Notes: generated by a model from the sequence alone, not told the origin. Numbered from the stretch's first letter, positions 33,436 to 42,421 are shown. The stretch: 64,000 nt of DNA from an uncultured Bacteroidota bacterium (GCA_902557655.1 CACEAZ010000001.1:7699-71698); one strand, 5' to 3'. A program made the numbers and translations.

Positions 33436-36063
33436 ATGGATTCAATGATGATATACATGCCAATAATAATGTCAGTTTTAGGCCTTGCTTATGTTTTTGT
33501 AAGAAGGTCTTGGGTAATGAAACAAGATGCCGGAGATGGAAAAATGAAAGAAATTTCTGATCATATTTATGAAGGAGCTTTAGCTTTTTTAAATGCTGAA
33601 TATCGTTTATTATCGGTTTTTGTACTTATTGTAAGTGCAGTTTTAGCAGGAATCTCATTTATAGTCCCTACAACTCACATTCTAATTGTTGTATCATTTA
33701 TTTTTGGAGCATTTTTCTCTGCCTATGCTGGAAATATAGGAATGAAAATAGCTACAAAAACAAATGTAAGAACTACTCAAGCTGCTAAAACATCACTACC
33801 AAATGCATTAAAAATTTCCTTTGCAGGTGGAACAGTTATGGGCTTAGGTGTTGCAGGTTTAGCAGTTTTAGGTTTAACAGCCTTTTTTATAATATTTTTC
33901 AACCACTTTATGGGTGGTGTGTGGTCCGCTACAGATTACGGATCTGCCAGTGATACCATGACAATTGTTTTAGAAACATTAGCTGGATTTTCATTAGGTG
34001 CTGAATCTATTGCATTGTTTGCCAGAGTAGGTGGTGGAATTTATACAAAAGCTGCTGATGTAGGAGCTGACTTGGTAGGAAAAGTTGAAGCTGGAATTCC
34101 TGAAGATGATCCTAGAAATCCTGCTACAATTGCAGATAATGTGGGAGATAATGTAGGGGATGTTGCAGGTATGGGAGCTGATTTGTTTGGTTCATACGTA
34201 GCAACTGTATTGGCTGCAATGGTTCTTGGAAATTATGTAATAGTAGATATGGGCGGTTCAATCGAAGATGCTTTTGGAGGAATCGGACCAATTTTATTGC
34301 CTATGGCTATTGCAGGTGTTGGTATCATCATTTCATTAATCGGTACATTGTTTGTAAAAATTAATTCCAATGATGCAAAAGAAGCTGAGGTTATGGGAGC
34401 CTTAAACAAAGGAAACGGTATCTCAATAATCTTAGTTGCAATATCTTGTTTTTTTCTTGTAGATTATATGCTTCCAGGTACTTTGAATATGGAATTTTTT
34501 GGTGAAGGATTAAAAGAAATTCCTTCTATGAATGTATTCTATGCTACCTTAACAGGTTTAATTGTTGGATGGTTTATTTCAGCAATCACCGAATATTATA
34601 CGGGATTGGGTAAAAAACCTGTTCTTGAAATTGTTCAGAAATCTAGTACTGGGGCAGCGACCAATATTATTGCTGGTTTGGCAACGGGTATGATTTCTAC
34701 TTTTGGTTCTGTTATCCTATTTGCTGCTGCAATTTGGGCTGCATATGCATTTGCTGGATTTTATGGTGTTGCATTATCTGCATCTGCTATGATGGCAACA
34801 ACTGGAATGCAGCTAGCTATTGATGCATTTGGGCCAATTTCTGATAATGCTGGAGGTGTTGCTGAAATGAGTGGTCAAGACCCAATTGTTAGAGAAAGAA
34901 CAGACATATTGGATTCAGTTGGTAATACTACTGCTGCTACTGGAAAAGGTTTTGCAATTGCTTCAGCTGCATTGACTTCACTTGCATTATTTGCAGCTTA
35001 TGTAACATTTACTGGAATTGAGGGAATTAATATTTTCAAAGCTCCAGTTTTAGCAATGTTATTTGTAGGAGGGATGGTACCTGTGGTATTTTCAGCTCTA
35101 GCTATGAATGCTGTTGGAAAGGCTGCCATGGAAATGGTATATGAAGTAAGAAGACAGTTTAAAGAAATCCCTGGAATTATGAAAGGGAAAGCAAAGCCCG
35201 AATATGATAAATGTGTTGATATTTCAACAAAGGCATCTCTAAGAGAAATGATGCTTCCAGGAATTTTAACGATTGGAACACCGATCATAATTACTGTGCT
35301 TCCAATGCTTTTTGGATTAGACAATCAATTAATTGCAGAGATGTTAGGAGGATACATGGCTGGTGTTACTGTTAGTGGTGTTTTATGGGCAATTTTCCAA
35401 AATAATGCTGGTGGTGCTTGGGATAATGCAAAAAAATCTTTTGAAGCAGGTGTTGAAATTAATGGAGAAATGACATTTAAAGGATCTGATGCTCACAAAG
35501 CATCTGTTACCGGAGATACTGTTGGTGATCCTTTTAAGGACACCTCTGGTCCGTCAATGAATATTCTTATCAAATTAACTTGCCTTATTGGTTTAGTTAT
35601 CGCCCCAATATTAGGTGGGCATGGAACACATCATACTGATGAGGCTGCAACAAACTATATTTATGATGCAACGTACTTAGACTCTTTTGAAATAGGCAAT
35701 GATGCAAAAGTATTACTTGTTCAAGGAATGGTTAGAGATTTAATTGCCAAAGACTACGCTAAGGTTGCTGAATATTTATCAGATGATGTTGTTTTTAATC
35801 TTTCTGACGGTTCTTCAGTTGAAGGTAAAGAAGAAGCAATGAAATTTATTTCAGACACTTATTCAGGAGTTGATATTAAAGATTATAATGTAGCAGTAAA
35901 TTTTGCTGTTACCGGAGATAATGGAGATGAGTGGGTACTTTTATGGGACAATGGAAAAGTTGTTGCCGATGGAAATGTCACTAGTTTAAACTGGATGGAA
36001 TCATTCAGATTTGACGGTGATAAGATTGCTTTTATTAACCAATTTTCTAAATCAAGAAATTAA
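33436..36063 (+). CDS. hppA: Membrane-bound ion-translocating pyrophosphatase (K+-dependent type) with an extra C-terminal NTF2/SnoaL-like domain of about 145 aa
   Basis: [51 protein letters not shown] (the Ala at the K+-dependence position) and [21 protein letters not shown]. After the last TM helix (about aa 728) the frame continues with a soluble domain showing an NTF2-like pattern. Confidence 0.9.
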
Positions 36064-36701: not shown

Positions 36702-37493
36702 TTAATTTGTTAAAATTAAATATTTATTTAAAAAATCCTCATTATAAATATACAAGGTTTCATTGATTACGAAAAAATCTTTTATAAATAATTTTTCTGA
36801 ATTTATTTTTTGAAATGTAAAATCTCTAATATTAAATAAAAAAATATTATTTGATCCGGTAAGCAATAAATTTTTTTTTAAAAAATTAACCTTATTAAAT
36901 CCTAAATTTTTTGATTCGCTAATAATAGTCCCATTGTAATTTATCATATAGAAATTATTTTTCGTCAAAACCCATAAGAAATTATAATTACTTTTCATAT
37001 CAATAATATTTTCCTTGAGAAGCACTTCAACTCCCTTTACAAAACTATTTTCTATATAATCAAATTTTTTAATTTTCATTGATAGTTGATCAAAGACCCA
37101 CATTGTGTTTTCATTAGAGGAGGAAACATGAGAGATTTCATTTAGATCATTTAAATTATTGAAATTTACCCTAACTATTTCGTTTAAAAAGTTGTCTAAT
37201 ACAACCATGGTGTTATAGTCCTTGTACCATACCTTTAATTTTAAAGGGTTAAATAAATCAACAATGGAGATATCACCCAAGGAGAAGTCAGAAAAAAATA
37301 ATTTTTTGTTTTTCGAAAGCTCGGATCCTGACAAATAATATATATTATTCATCATGTCTACATGTATTTTTTTTTCTGTATAAATAATTTTTTCTGAACT
37401 TATCTTATCTAGTAATAGGCTGTTTTGAGAAAAAATTAAGTTTGTAAAAACAAAAAGGAATAAAAATTGCACCCTCATAAGATCAATGTACAA
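36702..37493 (-). CDS. Hypothetical secreted protein (the real start is possibly ATG 37478: MRVQFLFLFVFTNLIFSQ)
   Basis: Signal peptide and Asn/Lys-rich sequence with no motif I recognise. Its stop is 1 nt from the dNK start, so the two are probably co-transcribed. Confidence 0.5.
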   Translation of the reverse strand: MYIDLMRVQFLFLFVFTNLIFSQNSLLLDKISSEKIIYTEKKIHVDMMNNIYYLSGSELSKNKKLFFSDFSLGDISIVDLFNPLKLKVWYKDYNTMVVLDNFLNEIVRVNFNNLNDLNEISHVSSSNENTMWVFDQLSMKIKKFDYIENSFVKGVEVLLKENIIDMKSNYNFLWVLTKNNFYMINYNGTIISESKNLGFNKVNFLKKNLLLTGSNNIFLFNIRDFTFQKINSEKLFIKDFFVINETLYIYNEDFLNKYLILTN

Positions 37494-37568
37494 AAATATT
37501 ATGATTAATTTAACTAGAAATTAACAGCTGTAAAACAGCCTTTTAAATAATTTTAAAAAAAGTTTTCC

Positions 37569-38459
37569 ATGAAAAATATTATTACACTACTGCTAATCTG
37601 TTTATTAAGTATTTCTTTTATTGCACAAGATTTTCAAGGTCAAGCTTTTTATAAAACACAGACTGCTATGGATTTAGGATCATGGGGGGATCGTATGTCT
37701 GCTGAACAAAAGAAAGCGATGAAAGAAAGGATGAAGCCTTATTTAGAACCTGTTTACATATTAACCTTTGATAAGACCAAATCCATTTATAAACAAGAAG
37801 AAAGATTAGATGCACCAGGTAGTGGTGGCGGAAGAGGATGGGGAAGAATGATGGCAGCAACTGGTGGACCTGTTTACAAGGATGTGGCTTCAAAAAAATC
37901 TCTTCAAAGTACCGAGTTTATGGGAAAAAAGTTCTTGATATCTAATGATCAAGATAATATCAAATGGGTCATGCAAAATGAACAAAAAATGATCGGAAAC
38001 TACTTATGTTTTAAGGCAACAGCTCAGGTTAAAAAACCAAAAACAATGACTAGTGTATGGAGGAATGCAGAAAAGAACACAAAAGAAGCTAAAGATGATA
38101 GTGCTAAAAAGGAAAATTCAGATAACCAAATGAACAAGAAAGTAGAAAAGCTAGACGAAGTTGTTGTTACTGCAGAAGTTGAAACCATTACGGCTTGGTA
38201 TACCCCTCAAATACCGGTAAGTCATGGTCCAGCTGAGTATGGTGGTCTTCCAGGGCTAATTTTAGAATTAACAAATGATAGAACCGTGATGCTATGCACT
38301 AAAGTCGTTATGAATCCTGAAAAAAGAATTGAAATATCTGAACCCACTAAGGGTGAATTTGTTACTAAGGGTGAATTTGAAAATATTGTTGAGGTAAAAG
38401 TCAAAGAAATGAGAGATATGTGGAGAGGACAACGTGGTAAATCATCCAGAAGAAACTAA
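37569..38459 (+). CDS. GLPGLI-family protein (TIGR01200-like), secreted
   Basis: Signal peptide, the eponymous motif GGLPGLILEL, and an internal Lys/Glu-rich low-complexity insert. Confidence 0.7.
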   Translation: MKNIITLLLICLLSISFIAQDFQGQAFYKTQTAMDLGSWGDRMSAEQKKAMKERMKPYLEPVYILTFDKTKSIYKQEERLDAPGSGGGRGWGRMMAATGGPVYKDVASKKSLQSTEFMGKKFLISNDQDNIKWVMQNEQKMIGNYLCFKATAQVKKPKTMTSVWRNAEKNTKEAKDDSAKKENSDNQMNKKVEKLDEVVVTAEVETITAWYTPQIPVSHGPAEYGGLPGLILELTNDRTVMLCTKVVMNPEKRIEISEPTKGEFVTKGEFENIVEVKVKEMRDMWRGQRGKSSRRN

Positions 38460-38462
38460 TAT

Positions 38463-39560
38463 ATGAAACTTAATGGCTTAAAATTATTTGATGGTTTTCT
38501 TTTTAGCGATCTAAAATATTTAATGGCTTACTCAATCCCGTTAACCGCAATTTTTGGATTTTACATGGGTGGATATTGGTTATTAACTACACCTATTTAT
38601 ATTTTTTTAATAATACCAATAATTGAACATTTATTAACTTTTCTAAAAATCGATGACTTGGAAAAAGGTAGGATAAATAAATCTACTCACTGGATTTTTG
38701 ATCTTATGCTTTACATCAATATACCCCTTGTTTATGGTATTTTAATTTATGCCTTAATTTTTCTGAAAAACAAGGACATATTTTCTATTGAATATATTAT
38801 CGGAATTTTAGCCGTTGGATTAGTGGTTGTTTCAAACGGTATTAATGTTGCTCATGAATTATGTCATAGAAGTAAAAAGTATGAAAAATTCTTAGGAAAA
38901 TTTTTACTTATCCCTTCTTTATACATGCATTTTTATTTAGAACATAATTTTGGTCATCACTTAAAGGTTGCCACTAATGAAGATCCCGTAACGGCCAAAT
39001 TTAATCAACCACTTTATTCCTTTTGGATTAGCGCTATAAAAGGTGAAATTTTATCAGCAATAGAAATTCAAAGTAAGAGATTAGATAAAAACAATCTTTC
39101 TTTTTTCTCTATTTATAATGATATGTTCTGGTACGCAATTATACAATTTTTATATATTCTAATTGTGTTTACTTTTTTTACACTTCAAGGTTTAATTTTT
39201 GTTTTATCAGTTGCACTGTTTTCAATTTTGATGTTTGAATGCGTTAATTATATCGAGCACTATGGATTATTAAGAAAAAAATTATCAAACGGAAGATATG
39301 AAAGAGTTACTGATATGCATTCTTGGAACTCAAACCATATTTTAGGAAGAATTGTTCTTTATGAACTGACAAGACACAGTGACCATCATAGAATTTCTGT
39401 CACAAAATATCAAAATTTAAAATCCATAGACAAATCCCCTCAATTACCATTTGGATATCCAACAAGTATCTTATTATCCTTTATTCCCGTTTTATGGTTT
39501 AAAATAATGAATCCAAGAGTTCCAAAACAAATGTTTCAGATAGAAACTAACAATAATTAA
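38463..39560 (+). CDS. alkB: Alkane 1-monooxygenase (AlkB-type integral-membrane di-iron hydroxylase)
   Basis: All diagnostic boxes are present: HELCHR (Hist-1), LEHNFGHHLKVATNEDPVTA (Hist-2), NYIEHYGL (HYG box) and LTRHSDHH (Hist-3). The N-terminus is polytopic. Confidence 0.8.
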   Translation: MKLNGLKLFDGFLFSDLKYLMAYSIPLTAIFGFYMGGYWLLTTPIYIFLIIPIIEHLLTFLKIDDLEKGRINKSTHWIFDLMLYINIPLVYGILIYALIFLKNKDIFSIEYIIGILAVGLVVVSNGINVAHELCHRSKKYEKFLGKFLLIPSLYMHFYLEHNFGHHLKVATNEDPVTAKFNQPLYSFWISAIKGEILSAIEIQSKRLDKNNLSFFSIYNDMFWYAIIQFLYILIVFTFFTLQGLIFVLSVALFSILMFECVNYIEHYGLLRKKLSNGRYERVTDMHSWNSNHILGRIVLYELTRHSDHHRISVTKYQNLKSIDKSPQLPFGYPTSILLSFIPVLWFKIMNPRVPKQMFQIETNNN

Positions 39561-39561
39561 G

Positions 39562-42312
39562 ATGAAAAAAAACTTATTTCTACTGTTTATTTTTACAAAT
39601 TCTGTAATTTTTTCACAGATAAAAATGACGGGAAAAGTCACTGACAGTATTGGCACACCCTTAGAATTAGCCAACGTTATATTAATTAATTCTGAATCTA
39701 ACTCATTAGAAACATTTGCTATGTCAGATGATAACGGAAATTATAAATTATCCCTTAAGAAAAATACATCTTATAATTTACAAATAAGTTATATAGGTAT
39801 GTTTACTTTTTCACAAATGTTGATGACGAAAGATGATGACATATTTAAAAACTTTTCTCTTCAGTCTAATAATCAATTAGATGCCGTTGAATTGACTTAT
39901 GAAATGCCAGTTGTAATTAGTGGTGATACATTAGTTTATGATGCAGATTCTTTTAAAACTGGCACCGAAAGAAAATTAGAGGATGTTTTAAAAAATTTAC
40001 CAGGCGTTGAAATTAATGATGATGGAGAAATAGAGGTAGAAGGAAAAGCGGTTACTAAGGTCATGGTAGAGGGAAAGGATTTCTTTGATGGAGACTCTAA
40101 AATTGCATCAAAAAATATACCCTCAAATGCTGTTGATAAGGTTCAAATACTTAAAAATTATGCCGAGGTTGGACAATTAAGCTCGGTTCAAAATAACCAA
40201 GACAATATTGCAATTAATATAAAATTAAAAAAGGGTAAAGATAAATTTTGGTTCGGTAATATTTTAGCAGGTTCAGGCGAATCACCCAACTACACTCAAA
40301 ACCAAGATTTAGACTTATATATTTTTCAGCCAAAACTATTTTTCTACAGCCCAACATACAGCATCAATGTAATTGGCGATTTAAATAATATTGGTGAACA
40401 AGCATTTACAAGAAGGGATTATTGGAATTTTTCTGGTGGATTTAAAAGGCCTAGCGGAAAAAGCGGAACAAATATTTCTTTGGGTAACAACAATCTTGGT
40501 TTTTTACAACTACAAAATAATAGAGCCAAAGACATAAACACCGAATTTATCGCGATTAACTCAAGTTTTTCTCCGTCAAAGAAATTAGACTATTCAGCTT
40601 TTTTAATTTTAACAAATAGTGAAACAGAAATTCAGCAAAATAACAGTACACAATATGTTGGATTGATTGACGATATTCCCGATGAAAATACTCAAACTAA
40701 TACTTCGCAAACAAGTGAATTAGGAATTGGTAAATTCTCGTTAAAATTTAATCCTAATGTTAATAATCAAGTTGATTACGAAGTTTTAGGAAGGGTTACA
40801 AACGAATCTCAGGATCAAAACTATCTTTCATCCGTTATTGGTTCAATCGAGCAGTTAGACGAAGCTGAAACTTTTAGCATAAATCAAAACTTAAATTATT
40901 ATTATACATTAAATGAGAAAAATATTTTTGCTCTAGAGGCTCAACATCAATTAAAAGATGAGGATCCGTTTTATAATGCTTTATTGGAAAATAATGATAA
41001 TTACCAGACCACGGCGATTGGTCTTGGGTTAGACAATTCTTTTCCCTTTTATAATATTGCACAGGATAAAAGAGTAAAGTCAAATCAATTAGACGCAAAA
41101 GTTGATTATTGGAATATTTTAAATAAGAAAAGTGATTTAAACCTAACCCTTGGTACAATTTATAGCAAGCAAGATTTTGATTCGGAAATATTTCAATATC
41201 TATCCGAGTATGATGAAAACATTTACAATCCTACATCCCTAGTTAATGATGGTTTTGACTCTAATGATGTTAGCTATTTATTTAATGATCTGTATTTGGG
41301 ACTGCATTACAGATTAAAAACAGGGAAATTTACCATCAGTCCTGGATTTACGGCACATTCATATAATTCTGAAAATAATCAGAGTGGATCTGTTGATTCT
41401 AATTTTTCTTATAAAAAATCTTTTTTTAAAATTCTTCCAGATTTTAATATGATTATTCAATTAAAGGATAGTGAGTCACTTATATTAAATTATGCAATGA
41501 GAACTCAATTTACCGATATAACCAAGATTGCAAGAGGTTTAGTTCTGAATAATTATAATTCACTTTTTATCGGAACCCAAGATTTGCAAAATGCTGTTTC
41601 TCATAACATTAGTTTAAATTATTACAGTTTTAATTTATTTAACTATACAAATGTTTACGCAGGAATTAATTATAATAAGTCAATTGATCAAATAAGAAAC
41701 TTAACAAGTTTTGAAAGTGTCATAGCCACCAGTAATCCTTTCAATTCTTCTTTTGCTGATGAAAATTTATCGGTATATGGTAGATATCAAAGATCATATG
41801 GCAAAATTAGAGGTACCTTAGGAACAAGCTTAAGCTTATCAAAATTTAATCAATTCATTAGGGATACTTCAGCACCAAGTCTCAATGAAACATTTTCACA
41901 AAGTTATAATAGCTCAATAAGAACCCTTTTTAAAAATGCTCCTAATATCGAGGCAGGAATTAAGTACTCTGTCAGTGAAACTAATATAGGCTCCCTAGAA
42001 ACAAAATATTTTACAGAGAGTCCATTTGTTGAGCTTGATGCTTTGATTTTAAAATCTTTTACCTTTAGAACAAACTACTCAACAACTAAATTTAAAGATC
42101 AAAACACGGTTTTGAATAATTATAAATTTTTTGATGCATCATTATCATACAGAACAGATAAAGAGAGCAAGTGGGAGTTTGAAATCAAAGCAACAAACCT
42201 TTTGGATACAAAGTCACAAAGTCAATCAAGTGTGTCAAATATTTCTGTAAGCACCTCTGAATATTTTATTCAGCCCAGATTTATTACTTTAAGACTGATA
42301 TATACTCTGTAA
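39562..42312 (+). CDS. Outer-membrane beta-barrel / TonB-dependent-receptor-like protein with a CarboxypepD_reg N-terminal domain
   Basis: Signal peptide, GKVTDSIGTPLELANVILIN and GDTLVYDADSFKTGTERKLEDVLKNLPGVEINDDGEIEVEGKAVTKVMVEGKDFF (plug-like). A long beta-rich region ends in an aromatic-rich C-terminus (RLIYTL). Confidence 0.7.
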   Translation: MKKNLFLLFIFTNSVIFSQIKMTGKVTDSIGTPLELANVILINSESNSLETFAMSDDNGNYKLSLKKNTSYNLQISYIGMFTFSQMLMTKDDDIFKNFSLQSNNQLDAVELTYEMPVVISGDTLVYDADSFKTGTERKLEDVLKNLPGVEINDDGEIEVEGKAVTKVMVEGKDFFDGDSKIASKNIPSNAVDKVQILKNYAEVGQLSSVQNNQDNIAINIKLKKGKDKFWFGNILAGSGESPNYTQNQDLDLYIFQPKLFFYSPTYSINVIGDLNNIGEQAFTRRDYWNFSGGFKRPSGKSGTNISLGNNNLGFLQLQNNRAKDINTEFIAINSSFSPSKKLDYSAFLILTNSETEIQQNNSTQYVGLIDDIPDENTQTNTSQTSELGIGKFSLKFNPNVNNQVDYEVLGRVTNESQDQNYLSSVIGSIEQLDEAETFSINQNLNYYYTLNEKNIFALEAQHQLKDEDPFYNALLENNDNYQTTAIGLGLDNSFPFYNIAQDKRVKSNQLDAKVDYWNILNKKSDLNLTLGTIYSKQDFDSEIFQYLSEYDENIYNPTSLVNDGFDSNDVSYLFNDLYLGLHYRLKTGKFTISPGFTAHSYNSENNQSGSVDSNFSYKKSFFKILPDFNMIIQLKDSESLILNYAMRTQFTDITKIARGLVLNNYNSLFIGTQDLQNAVSHNISLNYYSFNLFNYTNVYAGINYNKSIDQIRNLTSFESVIATSNPFNSSFADENLSVYGRYQRSYGKIRGTLGTSLSLSKFNQFIRDTSAPSLNETFSQSYNSSIRTLFKNAPNIEAGIKYSVSETNIGSLETKYFTESPFVELDALILKSFTFRTNYSTTKFKDQNTVLNNYKFFDASLSYRTDKESKWEFEIKATNLLDTKSQSQSSVSNISVSTSEYFIQPRFITLRLIYTL

Positions 42313-42421
42313 ATTTATTTAAGAATTCTTTTTTTAGTTGAAGAAAAAGTTTTTCTTTATAAAGTAGATTAGCTCCAGATATAATTTTATTGGATATAAT
42401 TTACTTTTTTTATTACAAAAA

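Follow-up and report, generated by a model that had tools for sequence, protein, structure and literature searches.

Probable relocation of an alkane monooxygenase gene into an older GLPGLI/TonB-receptor-like operon in a genus of small-genome Flavobacteriaceae

The stretch of DNA analyzed here, which is referred to throughout as the window, comprises 64,000 nucleotides (nt) from an uncultured Bacteroidota bacterium (G000:C1:7699-71698) and contains a compact unit of three genes in which alkB, the gene for an AlkB-type alkane 1-monooxygenase, lies between the gene for a secreted GLPGLI-family protein and the gene for a large outer-membrane barrel protein. The explanation that best accounts for this unit, to which we give a probability of roughly 0.6, is that a vertically inherited, functional and rubredoxin-independent alkB was relocated once, at the level of the genus, into an older operon made up of the GLPGLI gene and a TonB-receptor-like gene, and is probably co-transcribed with that operon now. 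The assembly from which the window is taken has a size of 1.39 Mb in 45 contigs, is 81.7% complete and has a G+C content of about 30%. An initial annotation, made from the sequence of the window alone, had described the unit as a candidate module for the uptake and hydroxylation of hydrocarbons, and the coordinates, the strand and the gaps of 3 nt and then 1 nt that it gave for the three genes are reproduced exactly by the list of open reading frames (ORFs). The genes, with the basis for each assignment, are as follows (aa, amino acids; AF2, AlphaFold2):

37569..38459, + strand: GLPGLI-family protein, 296 aa, with a signal peptide, probably periplasmic, predicted to form a LolA-like half-barrel (TIGR01200, PF09697, AF2 model)
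38463..39560, + strand: AlkB-type integral-membrane alkane 1-monooxygenase, 365 aa (PF00487, PDB entry 8f6t, histidine boxes)
39562..42312, + strand: outer-membrane protein, 916 aa, with a CarboxypepD_reg domain, a plug-like segment and a large beta-barrel (Pfam, AF2, Foldseek)

The GLPGLI-barrel pair is older than its link with alkB

The arrangement was placed in context by a survey of one genome per genus across 200 genera of the family Flavobacteriaceae, for which counts are given over 201 genomes, and by reading the gene neighbourhoods at the 28 best alkB loci and the 28 best barrel loci of other genera. Orthologues of the barrel, with identities of 55-73%, are found in 163 of the 201 genomes and in most genera, and alkB is present in 84 of the 201. 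In all 28 of the other genera a GLPGLI orthologue (42-50% identity) precedes the barrel gene at a distance of 10-110 nt with no alkB between them, which confirms the statement in the initial annotation that GLPGLI genes tend to be paired with barrels of this kind, and bears out its view that alkB has been inserted into such a pair in the window. At the 28 best alkB loci, no GLPGLI or barrel gene was found within 1.5 kb of alkB; the usual order there is DUF4175 <- alkB -> gltX, with a divergent DUF4175 gene in 27 of 28 genera and gltX downstream in 24 of 28.

When barrel orthologues were counted at E < 1e-150 with the window's genus excluded, they were present in 64 of 81 alkB-positive genomes and in 73 of 118 alkB-negative genomes. 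Because the pair occurs in these 73 alkB-negative genomes and is free of alkB in 28 of 28 genera, it is older than, and independent of, its association with alkB. A protein of 263 aa encoded divergently from the pair in the window also adjoins it, according to tblastn, throughout the genus and in 10 or more further genera, and since this neighbour is conserved beside the pair elsewhere, it follows that the pair occupies its ancestral place and that alkB is the gene that moved in. The 263-aa protein may itself belong functionally to the GLPGLI-barrel system.

The two flanking genes of the window's unit are orthologous to the pairs of GLPGLI and CarboxypepD_reg barrel genes (PF14905-like, annotated "TonB-dependent receptor") of other Flavobacteriaceae, with identities of 42-50% (GLPGLI) and 57-73% (barrel), and have the same order and orientation. 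They differ from these pairs in that interruption by alkB is confined to the window's genus, and in that the second GLPGLI paralogue which lies farther upstream of the pair in most of the 28 other genera is missing from the window genome, where there is a single GLPGLI gene.

A probable single relocation at the base of one genus

The window's genus is represented by 21 species-level genomes, each of them small, at 1.0-1.5 Mb, and each with an alkB (AlkB identities of 60-98%), and the order GLPGLI-alkB-barrel is found at every locus that has enough flanking sequence. Among the deep-branching species there is a 4-nt overlap between the stop of alkB and the start of the barrel gene, and the genes of the unit are packed tightly enough for the co-transcription that the initial annotation had proposed. 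When named public genomes were scanned separately for this gene pattern, the arrangement was found in 20 of 20 close relatives, which are the single-cell genomes AG-/AH-xxx and the metagenome-assembled genomes (MAGs) MED-G13, NAT90 and MED649, and in 0 of 56 more distant loci. Conservation of the three-gene order among relatives, the lack of which would refute the module according to the initial annotation, therefore extends to every species of the genus and fails at the level of the family, where alkB lies elsewhere at 28 of 28 loci and the pair lacks alkB at 28 of 28.

In a tree of 103 flavobacterial AlkB sequences the genus forms one clade, with support of 1.0, nested within the family. Because this clade is monophyletic and nested in this way, vertical descent with a single relocation is favoured over horizontal acquisition. 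The latter was considered and rejected on the ground of this nesting within Flavobacteriaceae AlkB, and also because the divergence of AlkB (52-58% identity) is on a par with that of gltX (50%) and of the barrel (57-64%). The gltX gene of the window genome is directly divergent from ybeY-mnmG and has no alkB beside it (L067, G000:C18:4000-15000), and tblastn against the 81.7%-complete assembly gave no match to the DUF4175 gene that in other genera stands between these genes and alkB.

The window's genus is not the only lineage in which alkB has left its usual place, as other marine flavobacteria with small genomes have the gene in no fewer than four additional contexts, and this distribution shows alkB to be a mobile single gene within streamlined genomes. 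At L122:3094-6445 and at about 17-23 Arcticimaribacter-like loci, alkB is co-directional with its neighbours between the genes for an EamA-family transporter and an acyl-CoA dehydrogenase. At L149:3068-6781 and seven similar MS024-2A-like loci, alkB lies between a divergent gene for a small outer-membrane beta-barrel protein of 219 aa (PF13505-like, sub-threshold) and a convergent gene for an AlkJ-like GMC oxidoreductase, a layout nearer to AlkL/AlkB/AlkJ than the arrangement in the window. Two more contexts have unrelated neighbours. In an uncultured Flavobacteriaceae MAG (L109:186-8459), DUF4175 is kept and the gltX beside alkB is replaced by a convergent, paralogous barrel-GLPGLI pair, consisting of a barrel (31% identity) and a GLPGLI protein (26% identity; PF09697, 54 bits).

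AlkB is predicted to be functional without rubredoxin

As judged from its sequence, the middle gene is a genuine alkB, and alkane hydroxylation is predicted for its product. The protein (38463-39560) matches PF00487 with 92 bits and aligns in a single stretch, residues 33-355, with the solved structures 8f6t (E 2.1e-65) and 8sbb (E 8.3e-58). The motifs HELCHR, EHNFGHH, NYIEHYGL and LTRHSDHH are all present, which include the histidine boxes of FA_desaturase type and the HYG box, and all of the AlkB histidines are conserved in the alignment of 103 flavobacterial AlkBs, so that the initial annotation was right to regard the boxes as intact. Strong hydrophobic segments at about residues 36-63, 83-101, 106-130 and 232-250 lie at the expected transmembrane positions, according to a hydropathy scan only. 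The protein has no fused redox domain, alkB is single-copy in the genome, and NCBIfam gave no model for either AlkB or the barrel. The first histidine box (window positions 38853-38870) reads HELCHR in 22 of 22 AlkBs of the genus and HELGHR in 78 of 81 other flavobacterial AlkBs, a genus-specific change from Gly to Cys directly beside metal ligands.

Among known systems, the closest counterparts are the solitary AlkBs of Bacteroidota "cluster V", from marine and freshwater Flavobacteriaceae (Nie et al. 2014, PMC4021335), to which the window's AlkB is orthologous, with 50-58% identity to other genera. The histidine boxes are the same, and a fused or adjacent rubredoxin is likewise lacking; the differences are the HELCHR in place of HELGHR and the location of alkB inside the GLPGLI-barrel operon rather than in the usual order DUF4175 <- alkB -> gltX. 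The catalytic subunit of the alkBFGHJKL/alkST system of Pseudomonas putida GPo1 (8f6t, 8sbb) is homologous and shares all of the di-iron ligand motifs. The window lacks, however, the AlkG/AlkF rubredoxin, the AlkT reductase, nearby AlkJ/AlkH/AlkK and an AlkL-type small channel of that system, the locus does not show the canonical alk operon (alkBFGHJKL), in which alkB is grouped with genes for rubredoxin, alcohol and aldehyde dehydrogenases, acyl-CoA synthetase and AlkL, and the candidate for an outer-membrane partner is instead the 916-aa, putatively plugged barrel.

The statement in the initial annotation that AlkB is unfused and that no electron-transfer partner lies nearby stands, since neither Pfam nor NCBIfam reveals a redox gene among the neighbours of the unit, and it can be extended: no rubredoxin domain (PF00301) was found in the 1.39-Mb, 81.7%-complete assembly, nor in the same-genus genome G076. 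The suggestion that this lack is a special feature of the locus does not survive comparison with the rest of the family. Rubredoxin domains are present in 43 of the 201 family genomes, where they form part of ORFs of about 480 aa and are not free rubredoxins (the one exception is an 83-aa frame in G164). Outside the genus they occur in 6 of 81 alkB-positive genomes against 37 of 118 alkB-negative ones, and so are rarer where alkB is present. Because 75 of the 81 alkB-positive genomes have no rubredoxin, its absence is the norm for flavobacterial AlkB and not peculiar to the window locus. In view of this family-wide pattern, a gap in the assembly probably does not fully account for the missing rubredoxin.

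The only small soluble carrier found in the assembly is a 2[4Fe-4S] ferredoxin of the YfhL family (96.6 bits, cut-off 86) encoded at G000 C12:25093-25440, and NqrF and thioredoxin reductase (TrxB) are further electron-carrier candidates. No dedicated ferredoxin reductase was found in the assembly, and a search for a dedicated 2Fe-2S ferredoxin or an FNR-type reductase as partner gave only NqrF and SdhB-like proteins. A ferredoxin together with a ferredoxin reductase is reported to substitute for rubredoxin and its reductase in vitro (PMC4021335). In the explanation preferred here, AlkB would be catalytically active, hydroxylating aliphatic chains at a di-iron site in the inner membrane, and its electrons would come from a donor other than rubredoxin, as would be the case for most flavobacterial AlkBs, with the YfhL-type ferredoxin as a candidate.

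The lack of any rubredoxin domain in the assembly, where NqrF and TrxB are the only reductases found, could alternatively be taken to mean that AlkB is a non-functional relic stranded without rubredoxin and rubredoxin reductase, in which case the arrangement would be meaningless. This is highly improbable, because the reading frame is intact and the metal-binding histidines are invariant in 22 sequences of the genus that range from 60 to 98% identity, a pattern that indicates purifying selection, because the 75 rubredoxin-free genomes outside the genus nevertheless keep alkB, and because of the substitution by ferredoxin and its reductase that is reported in vitro.

The window genome has four aldehyde dehydrogenases, three AMP-binding enzymes and one acyl-CoA dehydrogenase, which is truncated at a contig end, and a GMC (AlkJ-like) oxidoreductase was not found in it. 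Because there is no GMC oxidoreductase and the lone acyl-CoA dehydrogenase is truncated, a route for the assimilation of alkanes is not evident in the genome. These observations would be expected if AlkB acted instead on an endogenous envelope lipid, for example by omega-hydroxylation of a lipid or pigment tail, with the link to the pair reflecting the remodelling or export of envelope lipids. Such a role would also suit the position of alkB among housekeeping genes (DUF4175, gltX) in most genera, with no adjacent alcohol or aldehyde dehydrogenase, and the nearly core status of the gene (84 of 201 genomes in the family, 21 of 21 in the genus). It is nonetheless very unlikely in view of the close orthology of the protein to bona fide alkane hydroxylases, which includes the AlkB-specific NYIEHYGL box, and of the genes that flank alkB in other lineages, where a GMC oxidoreductase or acyl-CoA dehydrogenase gene lies next to it, as would be expected for alkane catabolism. 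Transcripts of alkB from marine Bacteroidota have, moreover, been reported in the photic-zone hydrocarbon cycle (PMC13488336), and the missing catabolic genes must be read against an assembly that is just 81.7% complete.

Predicted structures of the GLPGLI protein and the barrel

The GLPGLI protein is a clear member of its family, with matches to TIGR01200 (156.4 bits, cut-off 50) and PF09697 (86.9 bits, cut-off 25), and its GLPGLI motif, G226-L232, is invariant or almost so in 39 orthologues. The signal peptide at its N-terminus lacks a conserved lipobox Cys. An AF2 model built with the 39 orthologues, for which the predicted local distance difference test score (pLDDT) is 74, most resembles the N-domain of PNGase F-II (VIA Z 16.5, root-mean-square deviation 3.3 Å over 172 residues; Foldseek E 3e-7), followed by LolA (including a P. 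gingivalis protein), VioE, ependymin-related proteins and RseB/MucB, with VIA Z values of 8-11. Foldseek agrees with VIA, giving probabilities of 0.9-1.0 for matches to the LolA-like superfamily.

The model thus predicts a half-barrel fold which is typical of carriers of acyl chains or other hydrophobic ligands, and which matches that of LolA, LolB, LprG, LppX, RseB and ependymin as well as the PNGase F-II N-domain (4r4x/4r4z, 7zgn). Structure prediction, which the initial annotation had proposed as a way to look for a hydrophobic cavity, has therefore pointed to a fold of hydrophobic-ligand carriers. The protein differs from LolA in having no detectable sequence similarity to it, in its extra helices and in a disordered insert at residues 178-201, and from PNGase F-II in having no glycosidase domain attached. 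The predicted LolA-like fold is reported as new here. Literature searches for GLPGLI, PF09697 and TIGR01200 found no functional study, and no literature link between PNGase F-II and LolA was found. A chain in PDB entry 7zgn was named "Glpgli family protein" by its depositors, and searches of PDB sequences with the GLPGLI protein or the barrel, as single sequences and as profiles, gave only a match to the SusC N-terminal extension and a weak match to 7zgn.

The initial annotation described the third protein as a CarboxypepD_reg domain followed by a beta-barrel, and both of these parts are supported, but the protein does not appear to be a plain barrel. The CarboxypepD_reg domain scores 38.5 bits; a Plug domain (PF07715) is suggested at residues 123-201 by a sub-threshold match (19 bits against a cut-off of 23.9, E 0.002); and residues 229-914, about 690 aa, form long beta-strands in an AF2 model whose overall pLDDT is 60 and falls below 50 in the plug region. 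The combination of these three features indicates a TonB-receptor-like protein. In a Foldseek search the top-ranked matches were nearly all TonB-dependent transporters, with a probability of 1.0 and with TM-scores of only 0.22-0.34, which are low because the model is poor. A Pfam search gave no match to PF00593 or PF14905. The nearest Atlas clusters are labelled as TonB-dependent receptor or outer-membrane beta-barrel family, and PF14905 is found on 12-26% of their members. The protein thus resembles TonB-dependent transporters and appears related to PF14905. A conserved stretch L-D-x-V-E-L-T-Y-E that follows the CarboxypepD_reg domain in the consensus resembles the SusC-type box and is a candidate TonB box. 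The barrel is also unusually conserved, with a mean column identity of 72% over 34 orthologues.

Does the unit constitute an uptake module?

In the explanation preferred here, the solitary alkB would have moved once, at the base of a streamlined genus of surface-ocean Flavobacteriaceae with genomes of 1.0-1.5 Mb, and would have been inserted into the short gap between the genes of a far older GLPGLI/barrel operon. The pair would retain a conserved function of its own, independent of alkB. In the likeliest version the GLPGLI protein would carry a hydrophobic or lipid-like ligand between outer membrane and periplasm, a role suggested by the fold only. The adjacency is then best read as the product of genome compaction combined with frequent relocation of alkB, and not as proof of a module dedicated to alkane import.

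Several observations weigh against this account. The gene order has been kept despite divergence of AlkB down to 60% identity and of the GLPGLI protein down to 55%, with overlapping or nearly overlapping stop and start codons, and this could reflect selection for co-expression. The LolA-like fold predicted for the GLPGLI protein and the plug suggested for the barrel fit the handling of a hydrophobic substrate. An unrelated MAG (L109, described above) has alkB adjoining a paralogous barrel-GLPGLI pair, and barrel orthologues are somewhat commoner in alkB-positive than in alkB-negative genomes (79% against 62%).

The alternative, put forward in the initial annotation, is that the unit is itself a system for uptake and hydroxylation, in which the barrel would import alkanes or other long aliphatics, the GLPGLI protein would shuttle them through the periplasm and AlkB would hydroxylate them at the inner membrane, and which would reveal a general role of the pair in the uptake of hydrophobic substrates. 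The topology of such a pathway, from outer membrane to periplasm to inner membrane, is coherent; the tight packing of the three genes is conserved across all species of the genus; the predicted fold of the GLPGLI protein is shared with carriers of lipids and acyl chains (LolA, LprG, LppX, ependymin); the barrel resembles TonB-dependent transporters; and L109 would supply a second, independent adjacency. We nevertheless regard this alternative as unlikely. Of the 118 alkB-negative genomes, 73 carry the pair, and in 28 other genera alkB neither splits the pair nor lies next to it, which contradicts alkane uptake as the general role that the initial annotation had offered for the pair, and the barrel shows very high conservation in genomes with and without alkB alike, as its 72% mean column identity attests. 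The neighbourhood of alkB changes often in streamlined lineages, and its catabolic-looking neighbours, where it has any, are either an acyl-CoA dehydrogenase or the combination of a small outer-membrane beta-barrel and a GMC oxidoreductase, and not the GLPGLI-barrel pair. The adjacency in L109 was examined as independent support and set aside as compatible with chance, one such case in about 84 loci being roughly what would be expected.

The known channels with the role proposed for the barrel, the passage of alkanes across the outer membrane, also differ from it in architecture. FadL and AlkL are small barrels of 14 and 8 strands, respectively, with lateral openings and no TonB dependence, whereas the window's barrel resembles the plugged, 22-strand TonB-dependent transporters.

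A still broader proposal is that periplasmic LolA-like carriers of the GLPGLI family and TonB-receptor-like barrels form a widespread Bacteroidota system for hydrophobic aliphatics, which in this abundant ocean genus has been wired to AlkB as a rubredoxin-independent operon for the uptake and hydroxylation of phytoplankton alkanes; we consider it doubtful.

The locus has a wider bearing. Marine Bacteroidota hold a large share of the alkB genes of the ocean (PMC4021335). For the AlkB of flavobacteria, a missing rubredoxin is the usual state. Within a single genus alkB has become fixed in a GLPGLI/TonB-receptor-like operon, and an order that is stable in the genus and absent elsewhere hints at a module for hydrocarbon uptake but does not show one; should the connection be a matter of position alone, the locus would be a common kind of change in gene order during genome reduction. 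The large GLPGLI family, finally, gains from the structural models a testable hypothesis, that its members may be carriers of hydrophobic ligands partnered with plugged barrels.

Transcription and flanks of the unit

The features that border the three genes are the following:

36702..37493, - strand: secreted, beta-rich protein of 263 aa, of no family, with a signal-peptide-like N-terminus; divergent neighbour of the GLPGLI-barrel pair
37494..37568, + strand: AT-rich spacer of 75 nt, presumed promoter of the three-gene unit
42313..42421, + strand: spacer of 109 nt between the unit and the ilvD operon (ORF list, Pfam)

The first spacer is the only sizeable non-coding gap 5' of the three genes, and the spacing suggests that they are now probably expressed as one transcript that starts within 37494-37568. 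No terminator-like hairpin was detected on the + strand within the unit or in the spacer 42313..42421. A scan for sigma-70 promoters and terminators was uninformative in this AT-rich DNA, where 44 promoter-like sites were found against 34 expected, and it does not cover Bacteroidota promoters. The neighbours of the unit are the 263-aa protein, for which neither Pfam nor NCBIfam gave a family match, a deoxynucleoside kinase (dNK), and ilvD with acetolactate synthase. Farther upstream, at 33436-36063 on the + strand, the window encodes a membrane pyrophosphatase (H_PPase, 845 bits; sodium-translocating type according to NCBIfam) whose C-terminal residues 762-865 match a SnoaL_2/NTF2-like domain (E 1.3e-7), an unusual fusion.

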